Shown here one piece after another: positions 19,073 through 55,012 of a stretch of DNA of 64,000 nucleotides; the stretch's first letter is position 1; each line of letters starts with the position of its first letter. The position numbers were made by a program, and so were the translations under genes. Where the stretch lies: assembly GCA_002482535.1 (NCBI GenBank), contig DLGE01000011.1, forward strand, positions 2,600 through 66,599, read 5' to 3'. Under the pieces are notes generated by a model. It had not been told where the DNA came from, did no database searches, and saw only the letters and a list, made by a program, of their open reading frames with translations. This DNA comes from Peptococcaceae bacterium UBA7702. GTDB taxonomy: Bacteria > Bacillota > Dehalobacteriia > UBA7702.

Positions 19073-19100
19073 ATATCCGCATTATTCTTTCAATTATTTA
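19073..19100 (-). promoter_or_regulatory. sigma-D/FliA-type promoter candidate for MCP2
   Basis: On the minus strand the sequence reads TAAA, then 16 nt, then GCGGATAT. Confidence 0.45.
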
Positions 19101-19207
19101 CTCTTATGGACATATTTTAATGCCTTTGAGAAAATCCTGTTCATTTCATAAAGGAAACCACCTGCGTGATGCAGGTGGCTTTCGTTGAAATTTATGATTA
19201 TGGGATT

Positions 19208-21319
19208 TTAACGGTCAGAATCGTGATCTTCTTCTTTTAGTTCAAATCTTTTGATCAATTCCTTGAGCATTTGCGACTGACCGGAAAGTTCTTCACTGGC
19301 CGCGGCGCTTTCCTCCGCCGTGGCGCTGTTGGTCTGCACCACACCGGAAATCTGTTCCATACCGGTGTTCACTTGATCTGCCGCTTTCGCCTGATCTTCA
19401 CTGGCGTCGGCAATTTTCTGAATCACTTCGTCGGATCGTTTGGTACCCTCCGCAATTTTCTCTAAGGCTTTGGCGGTTTCCGTTACGATTTTCGAGCCGT
19501 TTTCAATGGCGGCCCGAGAGCTTTCAATCAAATCAGCGGTGTTCTTGGCGCTCTCCGCGGATTTACCCGCAAGGTTTCTCACTTCTTCCGCCACAACGGC
19601 AAAACCTTTCCCCGCCGAACCGGCCCGGGCCGCTTCCACCGCCGCGTTAAGGGCTAAGATATTCGTTTGGAAGGCGATGTCGTCGATGTTTTCAATAATT
19701 TTGCCAATTTTGTTGGAGGCGTTGCTGATTTCGTCCATGGCCTTGATCATCAGATCCATCTGCACCTTACCTTCGGTGGTGGTCTGTCCGTTCAGAATAG
19801 AAATCTCTTTCGCTTTCCCCGCGTTTTCCGCATTGGCTTTTATCTGCGCAGTAATCTCATTGAGTGTGGCGGAGAGTTCCTCAATGGCGCCGGCTTGTTC
19901 CGCCGCTCCTTGGGACAGTGACTGCGCCCCTTCCGATACCTGGGATGCCCCTTCAAAGACTTGGTCCGCGGACATATCCATTTCCCCAAACGTACTGTTC
20001 AATGAGTTGATGATGTTATTCAGACTTACCTTGATTTCATTAAAGTCGCCGATGTATTCTCTGGTGACCTCCTGATTGAGGTTTCCATTGGCAATTCCCG
20101 TTAGTACCTCTGAAATTTCACCGATATAGCTATTCAGGATTTCCGCGGTATGTTCATTGATTCTGGTGAGTTTACCCAGTTCATCATCGCTATAGGTGTC
20201 GGCTTTTTCGATATTCAGGTTACCTTGACCCATCTGTTCGATGTTGCCCACGATCTTACCCACCGGGGCCAAGGACTTTCTGAGATTTCTGAAAATGATG
20301 AAAGCAAGGAGAAGGAGGCCGACTACGGTAATGGAAACAACAATGATGATCATCGTCCGAACAGATTCATAGGCTTCGGATTCATCCACGGAGAACTGAC
20401 ATGACCAGGTTTGTTCAATCCCATCGACCTTCACGGGCATATTATAGAAAATTGCCTTGTCCATGGTTTGCGGATTCGTGGCTTTCATTTGGGTTTCCGT
20501 AGCGTTTTTGACGGCGTCGAGCCTTCCCGCGTCGCCGTCATTGGCTGCCTCAAATGAGGTCCCGGCATTATCTGGGTTGGCGGTATCCATAAGATAGGTT
20601 CCCTTCTGGGTCAAAAGACAGCCTGTGGATGTTTCATAACCGCCCATATCATAATCGAGGCCTAAAAAAGCATCGGATAAAATATCACAGCTGGCAATAC
20701 CCATAAACTCCCCATCTTCATTGATGACAGGATGACTTAGGGTAATGAGCCAAACCGTTTCACCGGTTGTCAAATCATACTTTGTGGGTTCTGTAATAAA
20801 TGCCCCCAACGTTTCTTTGGGAACGGAATAATAATCGCCGATGGAATAGACTTCCTTATAATTATTGGCAACTTTAATGGCTGTGCTGTCTCCATCTCTG
20901 AATACCCAGTAGGATAAACCGTCGGGGGTATCGGGTAAGTACAGATTCGGCTCAAAGGCATAATAGGCCGAAAAGATGTTTTCATCCACCAAAACGCTTT
21001 CCAATGAATCACGAAGCAGCTGATCCGTCGTATCATAGTCAAAGTTTCTGTAATTGGCCACGTTGTTGGCCAATGACTTGGAAAAGTTGTCCATCTTCTC
21101 CAAATAGCTCACAACGATTTTACTGTTATATGCCGCAATCTCCTTGATTTCATTCTCCTGCTTTTCTGTAAAGGCATTTTGCAAAACCACGCTCAGGGTA
21201 ACAATCACCACTAACATAACAAAAAACAGCGCAACCATTGTTTTGGTCAAGATTTTGTTCGTTAAGCTTTTTGATTTCATTGAGTTTCGCTCAGTCTTGT
21301 TTAGTGATTTCTTTTTCAA
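19208..21319 (-). CDS. methyl-accepting chemotaxis protein, paralog 3 of 5
   Basis: The architecture is the same as MCP1. The start is TTG with an AAGGAG RBS. Confidence 0.85.
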
Positions 21320-21362
21320 AGTTTTTTCTCCTTATAACGTTATTTTATATATTCTTATTTTT

Positions 21363-21390
21363 ATATCTGCTTTATTATTTCGATTATTTA
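21363..21390 (-). promoter_or_regulatory. sigma-D/FliA-type promoter candidate for MCP3
   Basis: On the minus strand the sequence reads TAAA, then 16 nt, then GCAGATAT. Confidence 0.45.
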
Positions 21391-21450
21391 TCTTTATCGA
21401 TTTATTTTCGTCACAAGCCGGCTGCATTACGAAGGAGGTTTCAAAAGGCA

Positions 21451-21673
21451 AAAAAGCCCGCTTAAGCGGACTTTTTAGACTGTAGACAAAATACGCGCAA
21501 GCGGATTTTGGGCTACAGGATGATAGGCTGTCGAGAAAGGCTTAGACGCGGTGAACGCTTTGGCCTGCGGCTGCGCCGCGTACCGAAATGTACTCAAACA
21601 GTCACAGGGTAGAGCGTTCGCCGTGTATCAGACTTTGTCGGCGGCCTGAAAAGCCCGCTTAAGCGGACTTTTC
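21451..21673. mobile_element. copy A of a 172-bp repeated intergenic element. The core runs 21477-21648. It is flanked by two identical copies of a local hairpin, aaaagcccgcttaagcggactttt.
   Basis: The core is about 90% identical to 33304-33475. The flanking 24-nt hairpin is directly duplicated at both ends. The MCP3-MCP4 spacer is 455 bp, versus 178-221 bp for the other inter-MCP spacers. Confidence 0.55.
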
Positions 21674-21774
21674 AGGATAGGATCATAAATTTCAAGAAAG
21701 ACCTTTTCTTTTTAGAGCATTTTGAAGCCACCTACATGATGTAGGTGGCTTCCATTAAAATGCATGAAATTTTA

Positions 21775-23883
21775 TCAATCAAAATCGCGATCTTCTTTTT
21801 TCAATTCGAATTTCCCAATCAATTCCTTGAGCATTTGCGCCTGACCGGAAAGCTCTTCGCTGGCGGCGGCGCTTTCTTCCGCCGTGGCGCTGTTGGTTTG
21901 CACCACACTGGAGATCTGTTCCATGCCGATGTTCACTTGATCCGCCGCCTTCGCCTGATCTTCACTGGCGTCAGCAATTTTCTGAATCACTTCATCAGAT
22001 CGTTCGGTGCCTTCGGCGATCTTTTCCAAGGCTTTCGCGGTTTCCGTTACGATTTTCGAGCCGTTTTCAATGGCGGCCCGGGAACTTTCAATCAACGTCG
22101 CGGTGTTCTTGGCGCTCTCTGCGGATTTACCCGCGAGGTTTCTCACTTCTTCCGCCACAACGGCAAAACCTTTCCCCGCCGAACCGGCCCGGGCGGCCTC
22201 CACCGCCGCGTTAAGGGCTAAGATATTCGTTTGGAAGGCGATGTCGTCGATGTTTTCGATGATTTTGCCGATCTTGTTGGAGGCGTTGCTGATTTCGTCC
22301 ATGGCCTTGATCATCAGATCCATCTGTACCTTGCCTTCGGCGGTGGTCTGCCCGTTCAGGAAAGAGATTTCCTTGGCCTTCGCCGCATTTTCCGCGTTGG
22401 CCTTTATCTGCCCGGTAATCTCACTGATCGTCGCGGAGAGTTCTTCAATGGCGCCGGCTTGTTCCGCCGCGCCCTGGGACAGTGACTGAGCCCCTTCCGA
22501 TACCTGGGTCGCGCCCTCAAAAACTTGGTCTGCGGACATATCCATTTCCGCGAAAATCTCGTTTAACGATTGAATGATGTCGTTGAGACTCATTTTGATC
22601 GCATTGAAATTGCCGATGTATTCCCTGGTAACTGTCTGATTAAGATTTCCATTGGCAATTTCCGTTAGTATCTCTGAAATTTCGCTAATATAGTTGTTTA
22701 GGATTTCCGCGGTATGTTCATTGATTCTGGTGAGCTTGCCCAGCTCGTCGTTGGCATAGTGATCGGCTTTTTCGATATTCAGGTTGCCCTGACCCATCTC
22801 TTCAATGTGATGCACAATCTTGCCCACCGGCGCCAAAGACTTCTTGAGATTTCTGTAAACAATAAAGGAAAGGATCAGCAGGCCCGCTACGGTAATGGCA
22901 ATGACCATAATAATCATCAGCCGGACGGATTGATAGGCTTCGGATTCATCCAAGGAAAACTGAGATGACCAGGTTTTTTCAATCCCCTCTACCTTCACTG
23001 GCATATTGTAGATGATTGCCTTGTTCAAGGTTTCTGGATTCGTACCTTCTATTTTGGTTTCCGTCGTATTTTTGATCGCTTCGAGTCTTTCCGCATCACC
23101 ATCATTGGTTACCTCAAACTGCACACCCTCATGATCCTTATTGGCGGTATCCACAAGGTAGGTCCCTTCCTGAGTCAAAAGACAACCTTGCGCTGTTTCA
23201 TAACCGCCCATATTATACTTTAAGTCTAAAAAGACATCGGCTAAAATGTCACAATTCGCCACCCCCATAAACTCCCCATCTTCGTTGAAGACGGGATTAC
23301 TCAGGGTAACGAGCCAGACCACTTCACCATTGGTCAGTTCATAGTTATATGGTTCTGTAATATGAGCCGCCATTTTTTCCTTTGAAACAGCATAGTATTC
23401 TCCGGTATTATAGACGGCATAATCGTTTAACACGTCAATGGCAACGTCGCTGCCGTCCCTGTATACATAATAGGATAAACCATCGGGGGTATCGGGGAAA
23501 TACAGATTTGGCTCAAAAGCATAGTAGGCCGAAAAGATGTTTTCATCCACCAAAACGCTTTCCAACGAATCGCGAAGCAATTTATCCGCCATTTCACGGT
23601 CAAATCCTCTGTAATTCGCCACGTTATTGGCCAATGATTTGGAGAAGTTGTCCATCTTTGCCAAATAGTTTGCAATCATTTCACTGTTATACACCGCAAG
23701 CTCTCTAATCTCATTTTCTTGCTTTTGCGTAAAAGCGTTTTGTAAAACCACGCTCAGTGCAACAATCACCACCACCATGACAATCAACAGCGGAACCATC
23801 GTCCTGATCAGTATTTTATTTGTCAAGCTCTTTGTTTTTGTTACACTTTGACTGCCTCCGGTTTTTTTAAATGACTTTTTCAC
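21775..23883 (-). CDS. methyl-accepting chemotaxis protein, paralog 4 of 5
   Basis: The architecture is the same as MCP1. This is the most divergent paralog, in both the N-terminal and sensor regions. Confidence 0.85.
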
Positions 23884-23921
23884 TGTAACACCCTCCTAAT
23901 GTTATTTATAACCTATATTTT

Positions 23922-23949
23922 ATATCTGTATAATTTCATTCAATATTTA
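23922..23949 (-). promoter_or_regulatory. sigma-D/FliA-type promoter candidate for MCP4
   Basis: On the minus strand the sequence reads TAAA, then 16 nt, then ACAGATAT. Confidence 0.4.
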
Positions 23950-24104
23950 ATTATTTGTTATTATTTATTTATTTTGCGCTATCCATAGGCTTGAGGAGCG
24001 GTTTTTCGTTTTGCCTTCCCTATTCTATGACGAAGCCGGCCAAAGCTACAAAGAAAGAAGCCACCTATATGATATAGGTGGCTTCAGATTTAATTTACAA
24101 TACC

Positions 24105-26213
24105 TTACCGATCAAAATCGTGATCTTCTTCTTTCAGTTCGAATTTTCCGATTAGTTCTTTGAGCATTTGCGACTGGCCGGAAAGTTCTTCGCTGGCGGC
24201 GGCGCTTTCCTCCGCAGTGGCGCTGTTGGTTTGCACCACACCGGAAATCTGTTCCATGCCGATGTTCACTTGATCCGCCGCTTTCGCCTGTTCTTCACTG
24301 GCGTCGGCAATTTCCTGAACCACCAGGTTGGATCTTTCGGTACCCTCGGCGATTTTTTCCAAGGCTTTCGCCGTTTCCGTGACGATTTTCGAACCGTTTT
24401 CAATGGCGGCCCGAGAGCTTTCAATCAAAGCAGCGGTGTTCTTGGCGCTCTCCGCGGATTTACCCGCGAGGTTTCTCACTTCTTCCGCGACAACGGCAAA
24501 TCCTTTCCCTGCCGAACCGGCCCGGGCGGCTTCTACCGCCGCGTTAAGAGCTAAAATATTCGTTTGGAAAGCGATGTCGTCGATATTTTCAATGATCTTG
24601 CCGATCTTGTTGGAGGCGTTGCTGATTTCGTCCATGGCCTTGATCATCAGATCCATCTGCACCTTGCCTTCGGCGGTGGTCTGCCCGTTCAGGAAAGAGA
24701 TTTCCTTGGCCTTCGCCGCATTTTCCGCGTTGGCTTTTATTTGGCTGGTAATCTCACTGATCGTAGCGGAGAGCTCTTCAATGGCGCCGGCTTGTTCCGC
24801 CGCACCCTGGGACAGCGACTGGGCTCCTTCCGATACCTGAGACGCCCCTTCAAAGACTTGGTCCGCGGACATATCCATTTCGGCGAAGACACTGTTTAAC
24901 GATTTGATGATGTTATTCAAGCTTACCTTGATTTCATTAAAGTCACCAATGTATTCTCTGGTAACCTCCTGATTGAGATTTCCGTTGGAGATCTTTGTCA
25001 GCACCTCCGAAATTTCGCTGATGTAGCTATTGAGGATCTCTGCGGTGTTTTCATTGATTTTCGTGAGTTTACCCAACTCGTCGTTGGTATAGTGATCGGC
25101 TTTTTCGATGTTCAGGTTGCCGTGACCCATCTGTTCGATGTTGTGTACGATCTTGCCCACCGGGGCCAAGGACTTTCTGAGATTTCTGAAAATGATGAAA
25201 GCAAGGAGGAGGAGACCAACTACGGTGATGGAAACGACAATGATGATCATCGTCCGAACAGATTCATAAGCTTCGGATTCATCCAAGGAGAACTGATAGG
25301 ACCAGGTTTTCTCAATCCCTTCTACCTGCACGGGCATATTGTAGATGATTGCCTTATTCAAAGTTTCCGGATTCGTGCCATCGATTTGGGTTTCCGTGGT
25401 ATTTTTGATGGCGTCGAGTCTTTCCGCGTCCCCTTTATTGGTGGCCTCAAATGCTGTCCCGGCGTTATCGGCATTGGCGGAATCCACAAGGTAGGTGCCT
25501 TCCTGGGTTAAAAGACAGCCTTCAGACGTTTCATAACCGCCCATATCATAATCGAGGCCTAAGAAAACCTCGGCTAAAATATCGCAGTTTGTCACGCCGA
25601 TAAAATCTCCGTCGGCATTAAATATTGGCTGGCTCATGGAAACCAAGTAAACCGTTTCACCGTTTGTCAGCTCATACTCATATGGTTCCGTAATATGACC
25701 CGCCAACTTCTCCTGGGAAACCGTATAGTATTCTCCAGTGGAATAGACATCATAATTGTTTAACACATCAATGGCCTGGTCATCCCCGTCTCTGTATACA
25801 TAGTAGGATATACCTTCGGGAGTATCGGGGAAATACATATTCGGCTCAAAGGCATAATAGGCCGAAAAGATGTTTTCATCCACCAAAACGCTTTCCAACG
25901 AATCGCGAAGCAGTTGATCCGCCGTATCATAGTCAAAATTTCTGTAATTCGCCACGTTGTTCGCCAACGATTTGGAGAAGTTATCCATCTTCTCCAAATA
26001 GCTCACAACGATTTTGCTGTTATACGCCGCAATCTCTTTGATTTCATTCTCTTGTTTTTCCGTAAAGGCGTTTTGCAAAACCACGCTCAGGGTAACAATC
26101 ACCACCAACATGACAAAAAACAGCGCCACCATTGTTTTGATCAAGATTTTGTTGGTTAAGCTCTTTGTTTTCAGGCCATTTGGCTCCGTGCTTTTTAAAA
26201 ATTTTTTCTTCAT
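24105..26213 (-). CDS. methyl-accepting chemotaxis protein, paralog 5 of 5
   Basis: The architecture is the same as MCP1. Confidence 0.85.
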
Positions 26214-26259
26214 ATCTCATCTCTCCTCGCAAAGTAATTTAGTAATTCCTTTTTTCTTT

Positions 26260-26287
26260 ATATCTGTTATATTCTCCCGATTATTTA
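26260..26287 (-). promoter_or_regulatory. sigma-D/FliA-type promoter candidate for MCP5
   Basis: On the minus strand the sequence reads TAAA, then 16 nt, then ACAGATAT. Confidence 0.4.
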
Positions 26288-26419
26288 TCATTACGGTTTA
26301 TTTTTATAAAAGAATCAGCCGCCGTTATGGAGGCATAACAGTGTGTCGGTAAAGTGTCTTTTTTCGCTCTTTCGGGTACAGGGCAAACTCCTAATATCAC
26401 CACCACAGTCCCCTTCTTT

Positions 26420-26465
26420 TACGAAAAAAGGTCCAGCCATCATCATCGACTTTGGCTGGACTTTT
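26420..26465 (-). terminator. rho-independent terminator downstream of the sortase/adhesin operon
   Basis: A ggtccagccaaagtcgatgatgatggctggacc hairpin is followed by a T-run on the minus strand. Confidence 0.6.
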
Positions 26466-26543
26466 CCTTGGGTTATGATTTAATTTAAGGGATTTTGTCA
26501 CTGCTTGACTTATTTATATTTATTCATTCTTTATTCTTTGTTT

Positions 26544-27203
26544 TTATTTTTCAGTCAAATCACAGCGGATGATCAGCCGCTGGGTCGCCACGCGTATCGG
26601 CGTACAGGTGATTAGCGTCATTTCATAGGCGTCGTTGCTGTTTAATACCCACACGTCTTCCGGGTCAACCACAAAGATATCGCTGACCGTATAAGTGAAG
26701 GTGTCGCCGCCATATTGGGCGATCACTTCGTCCCCTTTCGCCATCTCACCGAGACGGTTGAAGAACTCACCCCAAGCGTAACTGCGGTGGCCGGTGATAC
26801 AACAGTTACCGGCTTCTCCGGGCAGCGCCGTGCCCTTGAAATGACCTACCGCATATTTAAGGGTTTTCTTATCAACGCCTTCGCCGATGGCGACACGTAC
26901 GTCGATGGCGGGGATGGATAAAACACCCACCACCTCAATGGAACCCTTGCCGACTTGGAGCAGATCGTCGGGATTTGGCAGCATCGTCATCTTCTCGCCT
27001 TTTCCCGTAACCTCCGCGGCACGTCCGGTTTCGTACTGGCGGATCAACGCGTTTTGTTGATCATTCGTATACCATTTGACACCGGCCACAGCAAGGATCA
27101 GCAAGAGGCCGGCGCTGATCAAAATGAGGGAAAGGACGCGGACAATGCGGCGGGATGGCTTTTCCCTTTCTTTCTTAGCCGGAAGCTGCTTTTCCTTTGC
27201 CAT
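26544..27203 (-). CDS. sortase family transpeptidase
   Basis: The product has an N-terminal TM anchor, a catalytic TLITCTP (TLxTC) motif and a conserved downstream Arg. The gene overlaps or abuts the adhesin gene. Confidence 0.8.
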   Translation of the reverse strand: MAKEKQLPAKKEREKPSRRIVRVLSLILISAGLLLILAVAGVKWYTNDQQNALIRQYETGRAAEVTGKGEKMTMLPNPDDLLQVGKGSIEVVGVLSIPAIDVRVAIGEGVDKKTLKYAVGHFKGTALPGEAGNCCITGHRSYAWGEFFNRLGEMAKGDEVIAQYGGDTFTYTVSDIFVVDPEDVWVLNSNDAYEMTLITCTPIRVATQRLIIRCDLTEK

Positions 27204-27204
27204 G

Positions 27205-30200
27205 TCAGCTGTTTTTAGCCCCCCGTTTGCGATTGAGCAAACCGATGGTAGCGCCGCTGAGGATCAGGAAGATCCCGGCTAAAACCAGCATTTTGCCATC
27301 CCAAAACATGCCGGATTGAGGCAGCTTCTTTTTGGCCGTATTTTCCACGGTGTAAGTATACGTTTTTGCCAGTTCTGTGGTAACGCTGATCGTTGCCGTA
27401 CTGGCAATGTAACCGTCGGGTGCTTTTGTTTCGGTAATCGTATAGGCGCCGGGCATCACATCGTGAAAAGTCGCTAAACCGTTGCTGCCAGTCGTGGCGG
27501 TGGCGACAATGGTGCCGCCTGTATTGAACAGCGTAAATACAGCGCCGGAAAGGGCTTGCTTGGTGGAAGCGTCCACTTTCTTGATTTGGATCGTCGCGCC
27601 GATACGCTTATTTACCACCGTATAGGGGGAAGCTTTGACCACCGTATCCACATCCTTCGCGGTTAAGGTTATGGGAATCACTGCCGTGGAAAGGGTATAC
27701 CCTGCCGGGGCGCTGATTTCCTTGATGGTATAGGTGCCGATAAGGACGTCGGCAAAGGTGACTTTACCGTCGGCGGCAGAGGTCGCCTGAGATATGAGCT
27801 TGTTATTGCCATCATAAAGCCCGAATACCGCGCCGGCCAAAGCAGCGCCGGTATCGTCGGTTTTCTTCAGCTCAACGGTGGCGATCTGGGTGGCCGGATC
27901 GATTTCGTTCACGAAAGGACCGTCGGGTGTCAATACCAGATCCATGCCGGTATTTTCTTCGTTATAGGAAATGACCGCGGTCAGTTCCGTTTGACTCAAA
28001 AGATAATCTTTGGGCGCCACAGTTTCCCGGATCGTATACGTTCCCACACCCACGTCGACAAAGCGTACGAGGCCATCGATGCCAGAGGTAGCACTTTGCA
28101 ACAGTGCGTTTTCGCTGTTATAAAGTCCGAAGGTCGCCCCCTGCAAGGGGTTTACACCATTGGTTTTGGTGAATTCGATATCAATGGGAGCAATGGGTGC
28201 GTCCACAATCGCTCCCTCAGGAGAAATGTCAACGATACACGCGGTTTTATCCTCGTTATAGGTAATACCGATGGTAATTTCCGCATCGTAGATCAGATAT
28301 CCAATGGGCGATGATGTTTCCAGCGCCGTGTAGCTGCCGGCGGGAATTTCCGTAAAACGCACCACGCCGAATTCATCGGAAGTTGCGGTAGCCACCTCTT
28401 CGCTGTCTTGATCGTAAAGGGTGAAGACCGCGCCAGCCAAGGCATTGACGCCGTCGGTTTTGTTAAATTCCACGGTGGCCGTGGGCAACGGGCGGTTTTC
28501 GATGCTGTCATTTTCCGAGGTAATCGTGACAACGGTTGCGGTTTTATCTTCATTGTAGGTCACCGTGGCGGTGATGGTCTCACTGGATTCTACATAACCG
28601 TCGGGGGCTATGGTTTCTGCAACACTGTAAGTGCCAAGAGGCAGATCAGAAAAGGTCACGACGCCGTCCACCGCCGCAGCGGTGCGGCTGACGTCTTCAT
28701 TGTTATAATCGGTGCCGGTGAGGGTAAAGGTGCCGCCAGAAAGCGTCGCATCATCAGTGGCTGTTTTATCAAAGCTCAAGGTACCTAAAGCATCTTCGTC
28801 GGAGGTTGTGTAAAGAGCGTTTTCATTCAGACGGTCGCCGCCGATGTAGTCCGTATTGAGCAAATAACCGTCGGGGGTTCCTACTTCCACCACATAAAAG
28901 ACCCAGGAGGGCAAATTGCTGAAAACAGCATTGCCGCTGGCATTGGTGGTGGCTTCCACATATTTTCCGCCTTTGAGAATAGGATCCTTATTGAAGTTCA
29001 AGAGACGGTAAATGGCGCCTTCCACGGGATCCCCCGAACCATTCACCTTGTTGACCGTCAACTTCATGCTGCCGCTGCCTCCGGAAGACCACAGGTTGTT
29101 GATCTCAATCCGGGAGGCTTCCGCGGTACCGGAAGGGCTGCTGCTGGTGCCGGTAAGGGAAATCTTATTTACCGTATTCAAATCGTCGGCAATGATAAAG
29201 GTCGTAAATTCCAAACGGTAGGCGGCTTTGCTGTCAGGCAGCGTCACGGTGAGGGTATTGTTATTGGCCGCCGTCGGTAAGGTAACGGCATAACCGGAAG
29301 TCACCAAAGTTCCCTCCGCCGCGGCTTGCACGGAACCGTCGCTGTTGACAGCGACCCGATAGAGCTTGACGCTGTCTTCGTCCACCATCAGAGCGGGATC
29401 AAGAACGTCGCTGACGGAAGCGTTGGTCAACTGAATCTGGCCGGGATTGATCACGGCGGACCAGTCGATATGGTCAGAGCCGGTTTGGTATTGATATGTT
29501 TTGGTAACCACGGGGTTTTTGATTTTGGCGGTGGCCGTGACGTTGATCGGTGTGCCGATTTCATCCCCGTCAATGGAAGCTTTGTTGATGAAGTCCCTTT
29601 CGCCGGACCATTGCTGTTTCAGCGTCTCATCGGTTAACCGCGTATAGAAGGTGATGGTATATTGGTTGTCGATGGCCGATGAAAATTTATATTCAAAGGA
29701 CGTATCACCGTTGACACCGGTGGTGGGGGCTGTGGCCAGGGGCGTTGTTGCACCGCTTTCCAACACGGTAAAGGGATGCTCACTGTCAATCAAAAGCACC
29801 ATGCCCGGAGGAAGCGTATCGGTAACGACAGCGTTGGTCAAGGGGAGTTTATTGCGGTTGACCACGATCTGCCATTGCGCCGTATGGGTCGCGTAATCAT
29901 AGCTCCCCACCAAGGATTTGGCAATCATTTGACTGTTGTAGGTCTTTGTGCCGTCCACGGGAAGGTCTGTTTGACCGTCACGCCTTAAGACGACTTTATT
30001 GCCGAATCCCACTGAGTTATTGTTTACGTAAAGCGAGGAAAAATCAACGATTTTCGTAGAATACGTTACGGTATAGGCAGTGCTAATACTGCCAAAGGCA
30101 TAGGAAAAATCACGCACAAAACTGTCGGTAGAGGTGAATGCCGCTGTAGCCGTTGGCGTAGTCGTCGAAAATACAGTCGTGGAACCCTGTTTCACGGTAA

Positions 30201-31851
30201 AGGGATGGTCGGCGTCAATCAGGAGTTGCTGATTGGCGGGAATCGTATCCTTGATGGAGGCATTCGTCATAGAAATGGCGTTACGGTTTACGGTGGTGGT
30301 CCAAGTGATATAGCCGGGAGGAGCAAAATTCGTGGTAGAACCGGCGGATTTGGCTAAGAGACCGCCGCTGCCCACGCCGGTGGCGGTAGCTGTGTCTCCC
30401 GGCGGATTGCTGCTGTCGCTCATTTCCGTCCAGCTTAATTTCGCCCTGTTGGTAAAGTTTACCGTACCGTTGTTGTTGAGCATCGCGTCGCGGTTGGTAA
30501 CCTTCGTATAATAGGTCAGCGTGGCGTTGCCGCTTAAAGCGGCGGGAAAACGGTATTCCAGGGTACTTGCGGTCGCTACATCGGTGTAAGTATAGGTGTA
30601 GGTGCCGGCTGTAGTCCCTGAGTTAACGGTGGTCGCCGCGGTGGCGCCGATCTTGACCTGCACGGGATAAGTCGCATTGTTCAGCAATTCCAATCCCGCG
30701 GGGAGGGTATCGGTAATTTTGACGCCGGTGATCGATTCATCCCCGGGCACCGTTGCATTCACCGTCCATTTCAACACCATGGTTCCGTCACTGGTGGTCT
30801 CTTGGGTACCGGATTTACCGATCCAGTCCGTCTTGACAGTAGCCAGAGCGGGCTCCGTTACGGCTTCGCTCCCCCAGAAAATGGTGGCGGTGTTGGTAAA
30901 GGAGGAAGATTCCGTTGCGGTACTGGCTCCTGTTTCCGCTTTAAACGTCGTCGGCGTCGTTTTATAGGTAATGACTTGTTCGCCGGTGGTGCCGGCGGGG
31001 AAGGTGTAAGAAACCTGGTTGGCGGTGGTCAGATCAAGGCTGCCATCGGGAATATTGGTCGTTCCGACATAGAAAGAGCCGGCTTTATAGGTCTGATTGG
31101 AACTGTACACGTCCACGAGGTTATATTCACCCAAATCGACACCGCTGGGAGGCGTCGCCGTTACGGTCCAGGTGATATCGTTGGTGGAGGCATTGTATAC
31201 GCCGCTCTTTGCCAATTCGATTTCGGGAAGGGGCGGCACTTCACGATTAATGATCACGGTTTCCGTACCGAAGGTCACTTGAGTGGAAGTATTGTCGTCA
31301 GGACCGAGCTCCTTAAAGGTACCGTTCACACCGACTTTTCCCCACATATTGCTATGGTTGGCCACATCGGCGTTGAAGTTGACGCGGATCGTATTGCTGT
31401 CGGTAAATTGCCAGGTACCCAAAACCCAGGAGCCGGTTTCCGTATCTTCGGCAGTAATATCATGGGTTTCCCCTATCACATAGGCAAAGTCAATGCCGTT
31501 GGGAAGGGTAACGGTAAAATAGTTACTGCCGGAATACGAATAGAATTCTCCCTCTCCGTCACCGTCTTCCAAGTGGAACACATATTCCAGGCTGATGGTG
31601 GCATCGGCGGGAACATCGTTATACGTATTGCTCACCGGTAAGATCGCATTGCCATCGGCGTCTTTTACCGATAGGGATGACGGTCCGCCGGTTTCGGCGT
31701 AACTGCCGGTGGTGTTATGAATCGCCAGGTAATCGCTTTGATTGGTAAGATTGTCCGGCGTATCCGCAAAGATGGATACGATGGGTAGCGACAGCAAAGC
31801 AAAACATACGACCAACAATAATTTTATAAGACGATTCTTTTTCTTTTTCAT
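27205..31851 (-). CDS. 1548-aa cell-wall-anchored surface adhesin or pilin-like protein with six C-terminal CnaB/SpaA-type (prealbumin-fold) domains and an LPQSG sorting signal
   Basis: The signal peptide is MKKKKNRLIKLLLVVCFALLSLPIVSIFA. The N-terminal ~950 aa is a Thr/Ser-rich beta-rich region. Six repeats of about 95 aa each contain G(T/A)YT(I/L)xE(T/I)xAPxGY. The C-terminus is LPQSG, a hydrophobic stretch, then NRKRGAKNS. Confidence 0.8.
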   Translation of the reverse strand: MKKKKNRLIKLLLVVCFALLSLPIVSIFADTPDNLTNQSDYLAIHNTTGSYAETGGPSSLSVKDADGNAILPVSNTYNDVPADATISLEYVFHLEDGDGEGEFYSYSGSNYFTVTLPNGIDFAYVIGETHDITAEDTETGSWVLGTWQFTDSNTIRVNFNADVANHSNMWGKVGVNGTFKELGPDDNTSTQVTFGTETVIINREVPPLPEIELAKSGVYNASTNDITWTVTATPPSGVDLGEYNLVDVYSSNQTYKAGSFYVGTTNIPDGSLDLTTANQVSYTFPAGTTGEQVITYKTTPTTFKAETGASTATESSSFTNTATIFWGSEAVTEPALATVKTDWIGKSGTQETTSDGTMVLKWTVNATVPGDESITGVKITDTLPAGLELLNNATYPVQVKIGATAATTVNSGTTAGTYTYTYTDVATASTLEYRFPAALSGNATLTYYTKVTNRDAMLNNNGTVNFTNRAKLSWTEMSDSSNPPGDTATATGVGSGGLLAKSAGSTTNFAPPGYITWTTTVNRNAISMTNASIKDTIPANQQLLIDADHPFTVKQGSTTVFSTTTPTATAAFTSTDSFVRDFSYAFGSISTAYTVTYSTKIVDFSSLYVNNNSVGFGNKVVLRRDGQTDLPVDGTKTYNSQMIAKSLVGSYDYATHTAQWQIVVNRNKLPLTNAVVTDTLPPGMVLLIDSEHPFTVLESGATTPLATAPTTGVNGDTSFEYKFSSAIDNQYTITFYTRLTDETLKQQWSGERDFINKASIDGDEIGTPINVTATAKIKNPVVTKTYQYQTGSDHIDWSAVINPGQIQLTNASVSDVLDPALMVDEDSVKLYRVAVNSDGSVQAAAEGTLVTSGYAVTLPTAANNNTLTVTLPDSKAAYRLEFTTFIIADDLNTVNKISLTGTSSSPSGTAEASRIEINNLWSSGGSGSMKLTVNKVNGSGDPVEGAIYRLLNFNKDPILKGGKYVEATTNASGNAVFSNLPSWVFYVVEVGTPDGYLLNTDYIGGDRLNENALYTTSDEDALGTLSFDKTATDDATLSGGTFTLTGTDYNNEDVSRTAAAVDGVVTFSDLPLGTYSVAETIAPDGYVESSETITATVTYNEDKTATVVTITSENDSIENRPLPTATVEFNKTDGVNALAGAVFTLYDQDSEEVATATSDEFGVVRFTEIPAGSYTALETSSPIGYLIYDAEITIGITYNEDKTACIVDISPEGAIVDAPIAPIDIEFTKTNGVNPLQGATFGLYNSENALLQSATSGIDGLVRFVDVGVGTYTIRETVAPKDYLLSQTELTAVISYNEENTGMDLVLTPDGPFVNEIDPATQIATVELKKTDDTGAALAGAVFGLYDGNNKLISQATSAADGKVTFADVLIGTYTIKEISAPAGYTLSTAVIPITLTAKDVDTVVKASPYTVVNKRIGATIQIKKVDASTKQALSGAVFTLFNTGGTIVATATTGSNGLATFHDVMPGAYTITETKAPDGYIASTATISVTTELAKTYTYTVENTAKKKLPQSGMFWDGKMLVLAGIFLILSGATIGLLNRKRGAKNS

Positions 31852-32346
31852 TTGCTTACCCTTCCTTTCTCTAAATAGCGCTTCTTTATACTACGTCACT
31901 TTACGTTGCCTTCCATCAGCCAAATTGTTCGAAGGATGCATAACATAAATAGATACCCATTATACAATGGAATTAATCATATTTGAAATTAGTTTATCAT
32001 ATGTTACTACAATCGTCTATCACTTTTTTATCACATTTTTCTCTTAATTTCACAACGTTGCCTGGTTAGGACAGATTTTCCCCGGACACAAATGGTATAT
32101 GCTTGTTAAATGAATGGATTCCGTTGGATCTGATTTGGGTTTGGACTGAAACATAGAGTTCTTTGCTATTTTTTTCGTGCCTTTTCATCATAAGCATGGT
32201 ATAATGTGATTACCGATCGAAACGATTTCTCCCCTCTTTCGGCAATCATCAGGGGAAAAAGGAGAGATCCTTTTGATTTTAGCGGTCGCCGTTTAGATAA
32301 AACCTGAAAAACGGCACATACTAAGAAAAAAGTGAGGGGAAACGCG

Positions 32347-33264
32347 ATGATATACGACGTAATTATAATCGGCGGCGGTCCCAGCGGACTCACCGCAGCG
32401 CTATACGGCGCAAGAGCCGGTCTCTCGGTGCTGGTTTTAGAACGGTTTTTTGTCGGCGGACAAATGACTCAAATTTATGAAATTTTTAACTACCCCGGCT
32501 TTCCCGAAGGGATCAACGGCATGGATTTGGCTGTTCTTTTTGAACAGCAGGCAAAAAAATGGGGCGCCGAAATCAAACAGGAAGAAGTGACCTCTGTCAA
32601 TAAACGAAACCAACTATGGCAGCTTTCCACCAAAAATAATGAATATACGGCAAGAACGGTGGTGGCCGCCACCGGCGCTTATCCCCGACATCTCGGCGTC
32701 AAAGGCGAAGCGCAGCTTAGGGGGAAGGGCGTATCCTATTGCGGTACCTGTGACGGCCCTCTTTACCGCGATGGCACGGTGGCCGTGATCGGCGGCGGCA
32801 ATACAGCGCTGCAAGACGCCGATTTTCTCACCCGCTACGTAAAAAAGATCTACCTGATCCACCGCCGCGATGAATTCCGGGCCCAAAAAGTCCTGGTAGA
32901 TCAACTTAAAAAAAGCGATAAAGTAGAGTATTACTTAAACTGCGAAGTCACGGAAATTCTCGGCGCCGATGCCGTAAACGCCGTCAACATCAGTCATAGC
33001 GATACGGGAACAACGGAGACACTTGCGGTGAACGGCGTCTTCATCTTCATCGGCGACAATCCCAACAGCGGTTTCTGTAAGGATCTCATCAAAACCGATC
33101 CCCAGGGACGCGTCTTTACCGACAGTCACTACATGACCAGCGAACCAGGATTTTTCGCCATCGGTGACGTCCGGGACAGAGAAGTGTACCAAGTGGCCAC
33201 CGCCGTGGGGGACGGCGCCGACGTCATTCATTGGGTACAAAAATACCTGAAAGAAAACGAATAA
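32347..33264 (+). CDS. trxB: thioredoxin-disulfide reductase
   Basis: The product has the FAD motif IIGGGPSG, a redox CGTC(D) motif and the NADPH motif VIGGGNTA. The likely ATG is at 32347, with a GAGGGG RBS at 7-nt spacing. Confidence 0.8.
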   Translation: MIYDVIIIGGGPSGLTAALYGARAGLSVLVLERFFVGGQMTQIYEIFNYPGFPEGINGMDLAVLFEQQAKKWGAEIKQEEVTSVNKRNQLWQLSTKNNEYTARTVVAATGAYPRHLGVKGEAQLRGKGVSYCGTCDGPLYRDGTVAVIGGGNTALQDADFLTRYVKKIYLIHRRDEFRAQKVLVDQLKKSDKVEYYLNCEVTEILGADAVNAVNISHSDTGTTETLAVNGVFIFIGDNPNSGFCKDLIKTDPQGRVFTDSHYMTSEPGFFAIGDVRDREVYQVATAVGDGADVIHWVQKYLKENE

Positions 33265-33274: not shown

Positions 33275-33504
33275 AAGGGGCTGTCTTTTTAAGACAGCCC
33301 CTCAGACTGTAGACAAAATACGCGCAAGCGGATTTTGGGCTACAGGATGACAGGCTGTCGAGAAAGGCTTAGACGCGGTGAACACTTTGGCCTGCGGCTG
33401 CGCCGTGTACATAGAGGTACATAAGCTGTCGTGGGCCAAAGGGTTCGCCGTGTATCAGACTTTGTCGACGGCCTGAGGGGCTGTCTTATTAAGACAGCCC
33501 CTTA
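33275..33504. mobile_element. copy B of the 172-bp repeated intergenic element. The core runs 33304-33475. It is flanked by duplicated copies of a different local hairpin, ggggctgtct(t/a)ttaagacagcccc.
   Basis: The core is about 90% identical to copy A and the same length. The flanking hairpin differs from copy A's but is again duplicated on both sides. Confidence 0.55.
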
Positions 33505-33596
33505 TTTTGTTTCAGAAGCTGCCGCGAAAGCGGCGGCTTCTTTTTTGCTGCCTTTTCGCATATGAATGGACTATCTGAAGATGCGGAGTGCGGTCT

Positions 33597-34586
33597 ATGG
33601 AAGAAATGCTTTTTTACGGCTGGGGCATTGAGCCGGAAAAGATCGTTACAGTACAAGACAATGTATGGTGTGTTGAAGACGGTCTGGAAAAGTTCGCCTT
33701 CAAACGCAGCTTGCTCAAGGAAAAGAACCTCCGATTTGTTTGCGCTGCCGAGGACAGCCTTTTGCGCCACGGCTTTTTTGATTACGCTTTGTTGCTGCCA
33801 CCAAAAAACGGCCAGCTCTACTACGGCGATAAGGGTCAGTTTTATACGCTGCACCGCTGGATCGACGGGGAAAAGTGCGATTTCGATCATATCGGCCATT
33901 TATATACTGCCGCCCAAACCCTCTTTTCCTTTCATCTGCGCAGCCGGGAAAAATCCCTAAAAGATCTTGATTCCACCCGCTATGTCTGCTTTGACCGCTA
34001 TCAACAGCTGGCGGAGCGCGGCAGCGAATTGCAGCATTTTTATGAAATTGCCTCTTTCTCCCCGCAAACCTACTTTACCAAACTGTATCGGACATACTAC
34101 GGCGGTTTTTTAGAGAAAACACGCCGGGCCCAAAAAGAGCTGCTCTGCTCGGAATATCCCCGTCTGGCGAGGGAGGCTGCGGCTGTCGGCGCTTTCATCC
34201 ACTACGATGTAGCGGCACGGAACTTCCTCATTGAAAACAATAAAGCAATGCTCATCGATTTCGACTATTGCTGCTGCGATCTGCCCCTCACCGACTTGGT
34301 GCGCCTCACCAAGCGATCCTTAAAGAGCGGCGCCCGCTGCGAAGAGAAAATTAACGCGATTTTAAACGGCTATCAGCAGTATCGCCGCCTGACCAAGGAA
34401 GAAGGCAAAGTCCTCTACGCTTTACTGCTGTTTCCGCAAAAATACTGGCGTATCTCCCACCGCTATTTTTACGAACAAAAAGCCAACGAGGAGGAATACT
34501 ATATCAAGAAAATGGAAAACGCCGTCAAAGAATTGGAAAAAGAGGACCACTGGCTTGATCTGCTAAAAAAGAGATTGGAGGAATGA
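33597..34586 (+). CDS. cotS: CotS-family spore coat protein, a kinase-like protein with an aminoglycoside-phosphotransferase fold
   Basis: The product has the CotS/YtaA-like length and motifs HYDVAARNFLI and LIDFDYC. It is followed immediately by a GT4 glycosyltransferase, a cotS/cotSA-like pairing. Confidence 0.65.
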   Translation: MEEMLFYGWGIEPEKIVTVQDNVWCVEDGLEKFAFKRSLLKEKNLRFVCAAEDSLLRHGFFDYALLLPPKNGQLYYGDKGQFYTLHRWIDGEKCDFDHIGHLYTAAQTLFSFHLRSREKSLKDLDSTRYVCFDRYQQLAERGSELQHFYEIASFSPQTYFTKLYRTYYGGFLEKTRRAQKELLCSEYPRLAREAAAVGAFIHYDVAARNFLIENNKAMLIDFDYCCCDLPLTDLVRLTKRSLKSGARCEEKINAILNGYQQYRRLTKEEGKVLYALLLFPQKYWRISHRYFYEQKANEEEYYIKKMENAVKELEKEDHWLDLLKKRLEE

Positions 34587-42366: not shown

Positions 42367-43785
42367 TCATCCAAGAACGGCTTTATGGTATGCTTCAGGC
42401 AAGAGTTTTTCGATGATTTTTCTGCGTCCATCAGAAAGATCGGGAAATTCATATTCTTCGATACGTTTCTTCCATTCGGCGGTAAGCAGTTCTTCACAAA
42501 CTGGTTCACCATTCTTGACCCAGTTGTTATGGATATCTCTGACATCAAATTTGGGTTCAAAGAATTCCTTGCGGTAAATCGGTAGAGTTCTGCCAAGATA
42601 ACTGCCGGTCGGACCCTTTTTCTTGATTTCATCGAAGCGGAGAGTTTCTTCGGTAACATCATAACCTTTCATTAGATGGCGGCATTTCATGATATCTTCT
42701 TCGTCCCAGATAAATTTTTCATAGCACATTGTGTTCATCGTATCCATAGGACCGCAAGCCATATTCATAATGTCCGCTTTTAGCAGATGGGGGCTCAAGG
42801 CATTCATGAAGCATTCAGCACCACACTGGATATCGAGGACTTTGGATTCACCGGTACCGACGCCACTCTGCAAAGGCAGGCTATAAAAATCAGCCATGCG
42901 CTTAGAGGTGGCGCATGCCCACATTGCCTCAATCCCGCCATAAGCAGGTCCCATGGTTCTCATCTCATGAGAGGAGAATCTGGTGCAATAAAGGATTGGA
43001 GTACCCGGTCTCAACAGTTGGGAGTAGACAATCGCGGCCAGGACCATTGCATTACCAATGGTATAGGCGCCGGCCATGGTTTGGGGTCCGGAAGCGCCCA
43101 GCATCACGCCACTAACGACAGTACAGGGCTGACCGGCAGTACAAAGAACATCCATGGCTTCGCAGATGTCTTTGGCCAACTGCATCGGACCTACCGTGCA
43201 GGTGAGGGCGTGCATGATGGGCTTATCATAGATGCCGTAAAAATCCTGCATATTTTTGAAGCATTCCTCAACGACATCTCTACCGCCGAGAACCATACCG
43301 TGCATTGGTTTTTTGCAATAACGAAGAGCAACGCCAAGGCCGTACTGATTACGGATTGTGGGTTTAACATAGGAAAAGTCAATAATGTTGGGGTTGGAAA
43401 TGGAGATCACTTTACTCGTTTCAGAAAGTTTATGAAAATTGACCAGATCTTCGTGAGTGGTCGGACCATACGTGCCCTCTTTTCTGATAAAGATTGGGCC
43501 ATCAGTGGAATCATATTTTAAATCGCCGTCACCAATGGTGATATAATCGCCTTCTCTATCATAAAGGCGATACGTTTTCGGTACCGTGTTCAACGCATCT
43601 TCCAGCATCGCTCTGGTGATATAAACAACTTCACCATCAACCTTTGCACCGTGTCTTTTGAATAATTCCACCGCTTTGGGAGAGTGAAACGCAGCACCTA
43701 CTTCTTCAAGGATCTTAATACTTGTTTCATGGATCAGATCGACTTCGTTGTCGGTACCGATTGCATAACTTAATCTCATGTTCAT
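42367..43785 (-). CDS. MttB-superfamily methyltransferase, non-pyrrolysine type. It is a candidate quaternary-amine:corrinoid methyltransferase, MtgB-like.
   Basis: The 472-aa product is trimethylamine methyltransferase family. The reading frame is continuous with no in-frame TAG. Confidence 0.75.
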   Translation of the reverse strand: MNMRLSYAIGTDNEVDLIHETSIKILEEVGAAFHSPKAVELFKRHGAKVDGEVVYITRAMLEDALNTVPKTYRLYDREGDYITIGDGDLKYDSTDGPIFIRKEGTYGPTTHEDLVNFHKLSETSKVISISNPNIIDFSYVKPTIRNQYGLGVALRYCKKPMHGMVLGGRDVVEECFKNMQDFYGIYDKPIMHALTCTVGPMQLAKDICEAMDVLCTAGQPCTVVSGVMLGASGPQTMAGAYTIGNAMVLAAIVYSQLLRPGTPILYCTRFSSHEMRTMGPAYGGIEAMWACATSKRMADFYSLPLQSGVGTGESKVLDIQCGAECFMNALSPHLLKADIMNMACGPMDTMNTMCYEKFIWDEEDIMKCRHLMKGYDVTEETLRFDEIKKKGPTGSYLGRTLPIYRKEFFEPKFDVRDIHNNWVKNGEPVCEELLTAEWKKRIEEYEFPDLSDGRRKIIEKLLPEAYHKAVLG

Positions 43786-43861
43786 ATGAATATACTCCTT
43801 TCAGCATCATTAAATCCAACGATGATAATATCCCTTTTTACTTCGGCTTCCACTGCCTCTT

Positions 43862-45199
43862 TTATTCTTCCGTTACAGTTTCCACCGGCGTATTGGTTTT
43901 TTGCGCCGTTTTTCTCTTGGCACGTTCAGCGATTTCCTCCGCTCTGACCTCAGCAATAACCTTCTTGTTTCTGACCATGAAAACAATCGAAGCAATGATA
44001 CCGATTATCCCGAACACAACGAGCATGAGGAAGATATTCCCCCATGCCTGTTCAACAGGGAGGTTATCCAGCCACTGGCCGATGGGAATCGGCAGGATGG
44101 CATCGGTTGCATAAATCAACGTCGCATAAAAACCAATGGCAGAGCCGCTGAGATTCATCGGAACGCGGCATTGCCGCATCGGTGCATACATCTGACCGCG
44201 AAAAGCCCCTGTTAGGGTGATTTCGGCAATGATGATAATGATGAAAACCGCAACCATCGTGCTGTTTTTCGGCAGGAAATAGTAGATTGCCGCAATAACA
44301 GTAAGACAGATGTTAATAAAAAGAATCACTTTACTGGGGCCGAATTTGTCACCAAAGAAACCGACGCTGAAATTACCGACAGGTTTGCACCACTGGTTAA
44401 GCAGGCCGACATAAGCGGCAACGGCAACAGAGATACCAAAGCAACTGGTACCGAAGGTACCCATATAAGAACCGATGACACTGCCGACGGTGTAGCCGCC
44501 CATGGCCATAATACCTATCAGCCAAATATTCGGGTCTTTGATGCACTGTACCAACAATTTAAAGGGATTTTCTTTGTTGATCACATCTTCTGCAGATTCA
44601 TCATCATCTTTAAAAGCAAAGAACGCCATGATGCCGAAGAGCACCAGAACACCGGCATACATCCACATCACAAAACGCAGACCGGAAACAGTGTTATTAA
44701 ACTGGGAGAACATATAAACCGCGAAGGTCGCTGCAACGATGGCAAATACGCTTCTGGTACCTTCCATTGCGCCGAAGCTTTTGGACTCTGAACCAACTTT
44801 ACGCCCAAATTGTCTCGTCAGTTTTAAGAATGCGCCCCAGAAAGTCAGCGTCGTTGTAGCACCCATGATGGCATACAGGCAAAGTGTAACACCATAATTG
44901 GGGAAGAATCCGAGGAAAAAGTTGCACAACCCGGTGCCGATAAAGGAAATGACCACCAACATACGGGGGTGAACCTTATCCGCAAGGATGCCGCCGACAA
45001 AATAGGTCAGCATTGAGATCGTCAGTGCCACAGTGGACATTAAACCAAACTGAGTATTCGTCACATTGAATGCCGCAGTAAAAGCATCATAATAGCTTCC
45101 TCTGCTGAACAAAATATAGAAAATCGCATTGGAGCCGCAACCCAACAGCAGAAATTGTATGATCTCGCGGCTGCCTAATTTTTTACTAAGACTTGCCAT
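43862..45199 (-). CDS. MFS transporter
   Basis: The product has 12 predicted TM helices. I chose the start MASLSKK, which has a GGAAGGAGAA RBS. Confidence 0.75.
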   Translation of the reverse strand: MASLSKKLGSREIIQFLLLGCGSNAIFYILFSRGSYYDAFTAAFNVTNTQFGLMSTVALTISMLTYFVGGILADKVHPRMLVVISFIGTGLCNFFLGFFPNYGVTLCLYAIMGATTTLTFWGAFLKLTRQFGRKVGSESKSFGAMEGTRSVFAIVAATFAVYMFSQFNNTVSGLRFVMWMYAGVLVLFGIMAFFAFKDDDESAEDVINKENPFKLLVQCIKDPNIWLIGIMAMGGYTVGSVIGSYMGTFGTSCFGISVAVAAYVGLLNQWCKPVGNFSVGFFGDKFGPSKVILFINICLTVIAAIYYFLPKNSTMVAVFIIIIIAEITLTGAFRGQMYAPMRQCRVPMNLSGSAIGFYATLIYATDAILPIPIGQWLDNLPVEQAWGNIFLMLVVFGIIGIIASIVFMVRNKKVIAEVRAEEIAERAKRKTAQKTNTPVETVTEE

Positions 45200-45293
45200 T
45201 GTTTTTTCTCCTTCCATTTTATCCAAACCTGACAATCGTCAGGCGAGAACAAATAAAAAGCTCGTTTCTTTTTTTGAAAGGAAAGATGCAAGA

Positions 45294-45923
45294 TCAAGAA
45301 AGAGCCCAATCACGGCAGATCGCAACACCTTCCTGTGGATTGGTCGACCAGGCATCCGCACCGCATTCTTTGCAGGCTTCATCAGTAACAGGGTTTCCAC
45401 CGAGAATGATGTGAACCTCATCGCGCATACCTTCCGCTTTGAACGCTTCCACGGTGGCTTTCATGGAGTCTATCGCAAGCGTCAGAATACCGCTGAGACC
45501 AATGATCTTGACAACGTTTTCTTTCGCCGCCTTCACGATATCTTCCGGAGCAACATCAACGCCAAGGTCAATCACTTCAAAACCGCCGGCAGCCATAATC
45601 GATTTAACGATATTTTTGCCAATATCATGGATGTCACCGGCAACGGTACAAAGTATAATCTTACCGAGAGCTTCGGCGGAATCCGACGACATCAGGGGAT
45701 GCAGTGCTTCCATGGCATCGCCCATGAGCTCGCCCGCAAAAATCAGGTCCCCGACAAAATATTCGCCCCTTTCAAACATATCACCGACAACAGCCATACC
45801 TTCTTGACAGGCTGCCATTGCTGATGCCGCATCGCCCTTGGTTTCGACAACTTCATCGATCATTTCCATCGCAACCTCTTCATCCATTTCGCTGATGGCA
45901 ACTTTTAATTTTTCAAAATCCAT
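45294..45923 (-). CDS. cobalamin-binding corrinoid protein (MtbC/MtgC-like)
   Basis: There is a B12-binding-2 N-terminal helical domain plus a B12-binding domain with a DxHxxG motif (GDIHDIGKN). Confidence 0.8.
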   Translation of the reverse strand: MDFEKLKVAISEMDEEVAMEMIDEVVETKGDAASAMAACQEGMAVVGDMFERGEYFVGDLIFAGELMGDAMEALHPLMSSDSAEALGKIILCTVAGDIHDIGKNIVKSIMAAGGFEVIDLGVDVAPEDIVKAAKENVVKIIGLSGILTLAIDSMKATVEAFKAEGMRDEVHIILGGNPVTDEACKECGADAWSTNPQEGVAICRDWALS

Positions 45924-45966
45924 GGTCCATTCCTCCTTTATCCTTTATCAATGAAATTTTGTGTTT

Positions 45967-54843: not shown

Positions 54844-54940
54844 CTTTTACAATCTTTATAACAAGGTAGACTTTTTGCCAGGGCGGCAGGGCGGCAGGGC
54901 GGCGAGAAACCGTATCCCGCAAGGCACAGGCAAAAAGCAG

Positions 54941-55012
54941 GTTCGCCGCGTATCAGCCTTTGTCGGCAGCCTGAGGGTGTGTCCCAAATTTGGGGCACAC
55001 CCTCTCTTTTTT
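54941..55012 (+). repeat. partial third copy of the repeated element's 3' end, followed by a terminator hairpin
   Basis: The string gttcgccgcgtatcagcctttgtcggcagcctg matches the last ~33 nt of the copy A and copy B cores. It is followed by gggtgtgtcccaaatttggggcacaccc and a T-run. Confidence 0.45.

Follow-up and report, generated by a model that had tools for sequence, protein, structure and literature searches.

A 173-bp, probably MITE-like element flanked by directly duplicated terminator palindromes in Peptococcaceae-like Firmicutes

Introduction

Transposable elements that choose their targets by structure are rare, and in the published examples the target is either duplicated, as by IS1630, or replaced, as by IS1272. 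For IS1630 (IS30 family), found in Mycoplasma fermentans, and for its relative ISMhom-1, palindrome duplications of 16–26 bp have been described (PMC3317919 and PMC7648426; Calcutt et al. 1999, by title). IS1272, a member of the IS1182 family from staphylococci, targets stem-loops or cruciforms of varied size and sequence just downstream of genes, and its insertion has been observed to replace the stem-loop without duplicating the target (PMC5678879). The model proposed for this element includes a pathway (pathway b) in which the 3' ends of the transposon are joined at the 5' feet of the cruciform, so that the whole stem-loop would be duplicated (PMC5678879).

Here we describe a 173-bp element from a 64,000-nucleotide stretch of the genome of Peptococcaceae bacterium UBA7702 (contig DLGE01000011.1), referred to below as the window. 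As with IS1630, its targets are duplicated, and the duplications of 24–28 bp are whole terminator palindromes. IS1630, compared here by description only, differs in being an autonomous insertion sequence of ~1.4 kb from AT-rich Mollicutes that encodes a DDE transposase and has terminal repeats of 27 bp, whereas the present element is non-coding and resides in a spore-forming Firmicute of ~50% GC. IS1272 is an autonomous insertion sequence of 1.9 kb and replaces the type of target that is duplicated here; the duplicated left-end repeat of IS1272L is loosely like the two direct motifs at the left end of our element. Members of the IS30 family have related terminal repeats of ~20–30 bp; the hexamer TGTAGA presumably resembles an IS30 end, which we take as a lead only.

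Results

The copy between trxB and cotS

The copy that occupies the trxB-cotS spacer (copy B) and its immediate surroundings comprise the following features.

33276..33302, + strand: left flank of copy B, a duplicated host terminator palindrome of 27 bp, AGGGGCTGTCTTTTTAAGACAGCCCCT, with a single ortholog in the closest relative (L008)
33303..33475, + strand: core of copy B, 173 bp, 5'-CAGACTG...CGGCCTG-3' (repeat family D18, by alignment)
33476..33502, + strand: right copy of the palindrome, AGGGGCTGTCTTATTAAGACAGCCCCT, followed by the native T-rich tail
33514..33541, + strand: second trxB terminator, host context outside the element, unduplicated and kept in relatives

The upstream ORF (32347–33264, +) encodes a thioredoxin-reductase-type flavoprotein and the downstream ORF (33597–34586, +) a homologue of the CotS/YutH-type spore-coat kinases. 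From trxB to cotS the spacer consists of the palindrome, the core, the palindrome again with one loop base changed, the T-rich tail and the second terminator. A sequence-only reading of this DNA had placed a second full copy of the element here, with the same core length and boundaries as a copy located elsewhere in the window (copy A, below). Both statements are borne out: the core is found at 33303–33475 and aligns with that of copy A without gaps over 173 bp, with 153 identities. The same reading gave the flanks as ggggctgtctttttaagacagcccc (33277–33301) and ggggctgtcttattaagacagcccc (33477–33501). These sequences are present and one loop base apart, but the duplicated unit is longer than proposed, as it spans 27 bp including an outer A and T, and can be written as AGGGGCTGTCTT(T/A)TTAAGACAGCCCCT (33276–33302 and 33476–33502).

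The right hairpin of copy B keeps its T-tract and still scores as an intrinsic terminator. The left copy does not, and the start of the element stands where the native T-tract was. Because the left hairpin is without a T-tract, transcription of trxB probably enters the core, and would then probably stop at the right hairpin copy or at the second terminator. Short-read contigs with trxB and cotS genes identical to those of the window end ~28–30 nt into the core, from either side, which is the behaviour expected of an assembler at a multi-copy repeat.

Anatomy of the core

Three parts can be distinguished within the core, numbered here from its first base.

33307..33345, + strand: small 5' hairpin with a GCAA loop (core positions 5–43), with the terminal motif CTGTAGACAAAAT in one arm and an inverted copy of it in the other; no variation among the three full copies
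33351..33475, + strand: long imperfect hairpin of ~125 nt (core positions 49–173), at the base of which the internal motif AGGCTGTCGAGAAAG is paired with the right terminal inverted repeat CTTTGTCGACGGCCT
33406..33442, + strand: variable segment (core positions 104–140), made up of the loop at the apex and the 3' side of the apical stem, with 15 of the 20 differences between copies A and B

Both hairpins are present in the predicted plus-strand fold of each of the three full copies. The termini are CAG...CTG, and the terminal inverted repeats are imperfect, the two tips agreeing at 11 of 15 positions and the internal motif and the right tip at 13 of 15. A motif of ~15 nt, AGRCYGTMGASAAA, is found in four places. 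Two copies are direct, one at the left tip and one at position 50, and two are inverted, one in the small 5' hairpin and one at the right tip. It is plausible from this arrangement that the four copies are transposase-binding sites.

Among copies, there is almost no variation in the initial ~103 nt of the core or in its final ~33 nt. The alignment of copies A and B shows 20 differences in 173 positions, which cluster in the centre as had been claimed, although the cluster covers about 37 nt and not the ~45 nt first given. Invariant ends and a variable middle would fit cis-acting ends placed around a dispensable spacer.

Two other explanations of the variable segment were rejected. As a programmable guide of the bridge-RNA or spacer-like kind, the segment matches its own site over 5–7 nt, no better than it matches other sites. 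Against a diversity-generating retroelement, the changes seen in the variable arm are not specific to adenine, and no reverse transcriptase is present.

The core contains no ORF above 45 aa, and a search of 5.8 billion proteins with the translation of this longest frame yielded no homologue. Nor did the frame, used as bait, bring up any candidate in the protein database for a gene wrongly called at another copy. No Rfam match covers the core at the gathering threshold, and at E<=10 the only matches, at chance level, fall on the terminators. No convincing promoter was found.

Other copies and remnants

Copy A is located between two tandem genes for methyl-accepting chemotaxis proteins (MCPs), which are chemotaxis receptors, and is antisense to both.

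21452..21475, + strand: left flank of copy A, a 24-bp duplicated palindrome, AAAAGCCCGCTTAAGCGGACTTTT
21476..21648, + strand: core of copy A, 173 bp, in which the first base is T instead of C
21649..21672, + strand: right flank of copy A, the 24-bp palindrome duplicated, with its stem mismatch oriented as in the left copy

The cores of copies A and B are 88–89% identical; a repeat finder pairs the copy B core with 21477–21649 (D18) and reports flank-plus-tip inverted repeats for both copies (I2, I3). For 20–21-nt probes taken from each end of the core, shuffling of the window gives a chance expectation of 0.00.

The genes around copy A belong to a series of five tandem paralogous MCP genes on the minus strand (14604–26213), each of ~702 aa, with a period of ~2.3 kb and 3' ends that are 80–90% identical. 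One spacing in the series is longer than the others (2564 against ~2300) owing to the insertion of copy A. Compared with a relative with 2.65 Mb of sequence (L007), the window carries an extra ~18 kb (~14200–31900) between a DUF421 gene and trxB, which contains two tRNAs, the five MCP genes, a sortase and a 1548-aa SpaA/collagen-binding pilin-like protein. The gene order around this segment is otherwise as in L007 (folB-folP-ftsH-tilS-spoIIE ... trxB-cotS-GT-HK-RR). An 82-nt inverted repeat with 99% identity between arms 34 kb apart (14294–14375 and 48601–48682) is made up of tRNA genes (Rfam, 14298–14371, +, and 48605–48678, −). Genes for an MttB-family trimethylamine-methyltransferase, a corrinoid-binding protein and a pterin-binding methyltransferase adjoin a glycine-betaine-type ABC transporter at 42367–46776, which suggests a cluster for the demethylation of methylated amines or betaine.

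A third full copy (copy C) was identified in a scan of one genome per species, on a contig from an uncultured Peptococcaceae MAG, where it lies between vanX and traB with the 28-bp hairpin AAGCATCGGCGCAAAAACGCCGATGCTT on both sides. This filled site is seen in four assemblies, and several contigs carrying vanX end inside the core. Comparisons among full copies thus involve three sequences (A, B and C). Orientation relative to the neighbouring genes is mixed, copy B being sense and copies A and C antisense.

The window also contains a remnant of the element (remnant D).

54940..54973, + strand: remnant D, the right ~34 nt of the element only, GGTTCGCCGCGTATCAGCCTTTGTCGGCAGCCTG
54974..55003, + strand: single-copy terminator palindrome adjoining the remnant, AGGGTGTGTCCCAAATTTGGGGCACACCCT, with a T-run after it

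The left part of this copy has either been replaced or belongs to a divergent subfamily. Upstream of the remnant (54879–54903 and 54860–54940) are a perfect (CAGGGCGG)x3 tandem repeat and a stem formed by CTTTTTGCC...GGCAAAAAG. On the other side, a 336-aa ORF without a Pfam match (55021–56031, minus strand) converges on the terminator next to the remnant; an 18-nt tandem repeat within it (55057–55107) encodes a Gly/Pro-rich stretch.

A shortened copy is found in a further relative (L018:18565–18658, GCA_040776805.1). Its apical hairpin segment is inverted with respect to the canonical copies, which is a flip between the hairpin arms and thus an event at the DNA level, and it ends ...GACGGCCTG directly against the terminator-like hairpin AAGCGGTTACAAAAGTGACCGCGTTTT. 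The ends of additional copies occur at contig edges in L004 and L022. These copies amount to a minimum of 7 insertions, distributed over 5 or more assemblies. The scans of public genomes and metagenomes used exact patterns and gave one locus each, so that they underestimate copy number and spread. Searches with nhmmer across ~220 kb of fetched DNA found no diverged copies beyond those listed here.

Hairpins at the junctions

The direct duplications at the full copies measure 24 bp (A), 27 bp (B) and 28 bp (C), and each is a complete palindrome. In terms of stem, loop and stem these are 12+0+12, 12+3+12 and 11+6+11, and the hairpins at one-sided junctions are similarly composed: 26 bp as 11+4+11 in L022, and 30 bp as 12+6+12 at remnant D. 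At each site the two hairpin copies agree completely or in all but 1 nt. Since bases of the stem or loop that are not symmetric can be followed from one side to the other, the flanks can be recognised as direct and not inverted repeats. The C/A mismatch in the stem of copy A has the same orientation on both sides (24 of 24 positions agree as direct repeats, 22 of 24 as inverted), as does the loop CAAAAA of copy C (28 of 28 against 22 of 28).

The core adjoins at least 6 hairpins that are unrelated in sequence, and the flanks have nothing in common except that they are palindromes, mostly bounded by A...T. Six of the seven right-end junctions lie directly against a terminator-like hairpin. The exception, and the sole misfit, is a metagenome contig that starts inside a copy (L004:1098–1150), in which the right end is followed by AGCAGCGCAGAACTGCGG... 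and no clean terminator hairpin is formed. Within the window there are no tandem hairpin pairs without a core that might be read as excision footprints.

Empty sites in relatives

In L008, the TrxB of which is 89% identical to that of the window, the trxB-cotS spacer is 130 nt long and holds one orthologous hairpin and no core. This hairpin, GGAGCTGCC-atcatac-GGCAGCTCC, is at the same position as that of the window and shares its outer stem bases. The window spacer of 332 nt corresponds to 130 + 173 + 27 + 2. More distant relatives (84% and 74%) are also without the core between these genes.

The vanX-traB site gives a similar result. In L019 and L022 (79% and 80% VanX identity) it lacks the core and has a single orthologous hairpin, ATCATCGGCGC-loop-GCGCCGATGAT. 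In L018, the closest relative at this site (90%; L018:10610–10771, compared with L012, L019 and L022) a stretch of ~40 nt including the hairpin is absent, and there is again no core. As more distant genomes keep the hairpin, this gap is best read as a lineage-specific deletion, which may be a simple one or the scar of a lost element.

A third pair of sites is located just downstream of traB. In L022 (8330–8389) the right end of the element stands against the 3' foot of the hairpin CGGCATAGGCC-ATAA-GGCCTATGCCG, with the other junction past the end of the contig, and in L019 (12010–12050) the same hairpin occurs alone with no element. The paralogous MCP spacers have neither the copy A hairpin nor the core, but have diverged too far to serve as a decisive empty site for copy A.

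The sequence-only reading had held that the hairpin of copy B differs from that of copy A and that the flanks are duplicated host sequence and not part of the element. The hairpins are indeed locus-specific (27 bp against 24 bp), and the host origin of the flanks agrees with their direct orientation, with the different hairpin at each locus and with the empty sites. The single hairpin in L008 is the arrangement to be expected at trxB-cotS on this account, and no relative lacking the core was seen to carry both hairpins.

Searches for a mobilising partner

No transposase domain was detected among the 49 ORFs of the window, and neither the window nor the ~220 kb of fetched loci yielded a transposase, TnpA/RAYT included. 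There was thus no candidate gene for an IS30-type DDE transposase with an N-terminal HTH domain. An autonomous partner with the same ends was likewise not found in the window, in the fetched loci or in the exact-match scans. The core has no blastn match in plasmid and phage collections. Of three patterns run against viral contigs, two were without a match and the other gave one 18-mer match (L010) inside a coding region, which we attribute to chance.

Discussion

The element is present in multiple copies in a clade of spore-forming Peptococcaceae-like Firmicutes. Its small size, lack of coding capacity, CAG...CTG tips, direct duplications, insertion polymorphism and remnants point to a non-autonomous transposable element, and it seems likely that it is a MITE-like one, mobilised by a trans-acting transposase, for which the target duplication is a whole terminator palindrome. 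With bacterial MITEs such as Correia, RUP, ERIC and bcr1 it shares its small size, lack of coding sequence, multiple copies between genes, terminal inverted repeats, folding into a long hairpin and insertion polymorphism between relatives. Four of the features by which MITEs are recognised are seen here: a non-coding unit of <500 bp, terminal inverted repeats, target duplication with matching empty sites, and dispersed copies. Classical MITEs make short duplications of fixed length, 2–10 bp. No description of a MITE with duplication of a whole terminator was found in the literature searched, which was covered incompletely. SPRITE, a pneumococcal element resembling rho-independent terminators, is also a small repeat tied to terminator-like hairpins, but carries its own hairpin inside the repeated unit, whereas here the hairpins are locus-specific host DNA and the repeated unit lies between them (PMC10969869).

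A transposase encoded elsewhere, presumably of the DDE type, would insert the element into intrinsic-terminator-like palindromes downstream of genes by two strand transfers at the two outer feet of the stem-loop. The simplest substrate would be an extruded cruciform, in which these outer feet are side by side. Repair of the two resulting single-stranded gaps would copy the entire palindrome, whatever its sequence or length, to both sides, leaving a terminator hairpin on each side and the element in a 3'-UTR or intergenic position. With the terminator remade on both sides, insertion would be nearly harmless.

Set beside the two described systems by behaviour alone, this mode of insertion appears to work like that of IS1630 and as the mirror image of that of IS1272. 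Target duplication of the IS1630 type, as judged against the literature descriptions, is seen at copies A, B and C and at the L022 junction. With regard to IS1272, a stem-loop is targeted here too, but it is duplicated and not replaced, which fits pathway b. Group IIC introns possess ribozyme domains I–VI and insert 3' of a terminator hairpin without duplicating it. A relation to these was rejected, as 173 nt is too short, there is no match to an Rfam intron, and the hairpin is duplicated.

The fold of the core is open to another interpretation. Calculated energies are −92 to −102 kcal/mol for the plus strand and −66 to −73 for the minus strand, a difference of 25–30, and the helix positions that are not Watson–Crick on the plus strand are G.U 21 times and A.C 3 times (about 13 and 3 as distinct events). 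This strand bias could be a sign of selection, either on a transcript or on a top-strand intermediate that is single-stranded, although with three related copies it is only suggestive, and a plain cut-and-paste MITE has no need of it, which counts to some extent against our reading. It would be in keeping with a core that is primarily a functional structured small RNA, either a 3'-UTR or an antisense module between terminators, for which the strand-specific fold is selected and spread is secondary. The GCAA loop is a tetraloop of the GNRA type, one apical pair is compensatory (T-A vs C-G), and the probable readthrough from trxB, past a left hairpin without a T-tract to a stop at the right hairpin, would supply a transcript. 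We nonetheless regard a primary role as RNA as improbable, because another pair goes from G.U to A.C, no Rfam family is matched even at permissive thresholds, there is no convincing promoter and orientation relative to host genes is mixed. The truncated remnants and the apical flip in L018, an event at the DNA level, also count against it, and whole-hairpin duplications and empty sites would be left unexplained. The same strand bias, with its G.T-tolerant pairing, together with subterminal hairpins at both ends, could also be expected if the element derived from a transposon that moves as single-stranded DNA (of the IS200/IS605-type PATE or REPIN-like kind), with a HUH/Y1 transposase reading the top-strand hairpins. 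IS200/IS605-type and REPIN elements insert 3' of a fixed tetra- or pentanucleotide and are not known to make a target duplication. Every full copy here has a direct duplication of 24–28 bp, the sites share no target oligonucleotide, and no TnpA or RAYT gene is found nearby in the window or the fetched loci, so that an origin of this kind is very doubtful.

The hairpins themselves might be thought to belong to the element, or to be made by site-specific recombination in the manner of Xer or of integron attC sites, and not by duplication of host DNA. The vanX-traB site of L018, with neither hairpin nor core, and the paralogous MCP spacers without the copy A hairpin speak for this. Single orthologous hairpins without a core in L008, L019 and L022 largely refute it, and hairpins at six sites that are unrelated in sequence, present at each site as direct repeats identical or 1 nt apart, leave it scarcely credible. 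Several observations count against the MITE-like reading as well: the imperfect terminal repeats, the L004 junction, the hairpin-free vanX-traB site of L018, the small number of full copies (three), the reliance on exact-match scans, and the failure to find an autonomous partner or transposase. We give some small weight to a less conventional account, in which the mover is an enzyme outside the known hairpin-targeting IS families that reads only the shape of DNA (the four-way junction of a terminator cruciform), and/or the core is used as RNA, as a portable 3'-UTR module bracketed by two copies of a host terminator.

On the MITE-like reading, this is a previously undescribed family with a rare but documented, structure-directed mode of insertion. 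In practical terms, the repeat breaks short-read assemblies, and doubled terminators would confuse predictors of terminators and small RNAs. The loci described here provide natural pairs of filled and empty sites in a different phylum-level setting from the known examples, that of GC-rich terminators in a spore-forming Firmicute. Strand transfer at the feet of a cruciform would be expected to leave just this signature, duplication of the whole palindrome (24, 26, 27 or 28 bp) irrespective of loop size. For its hosts, a selfish element that lands in terminators and remakes one on each side would be nearly harmless.
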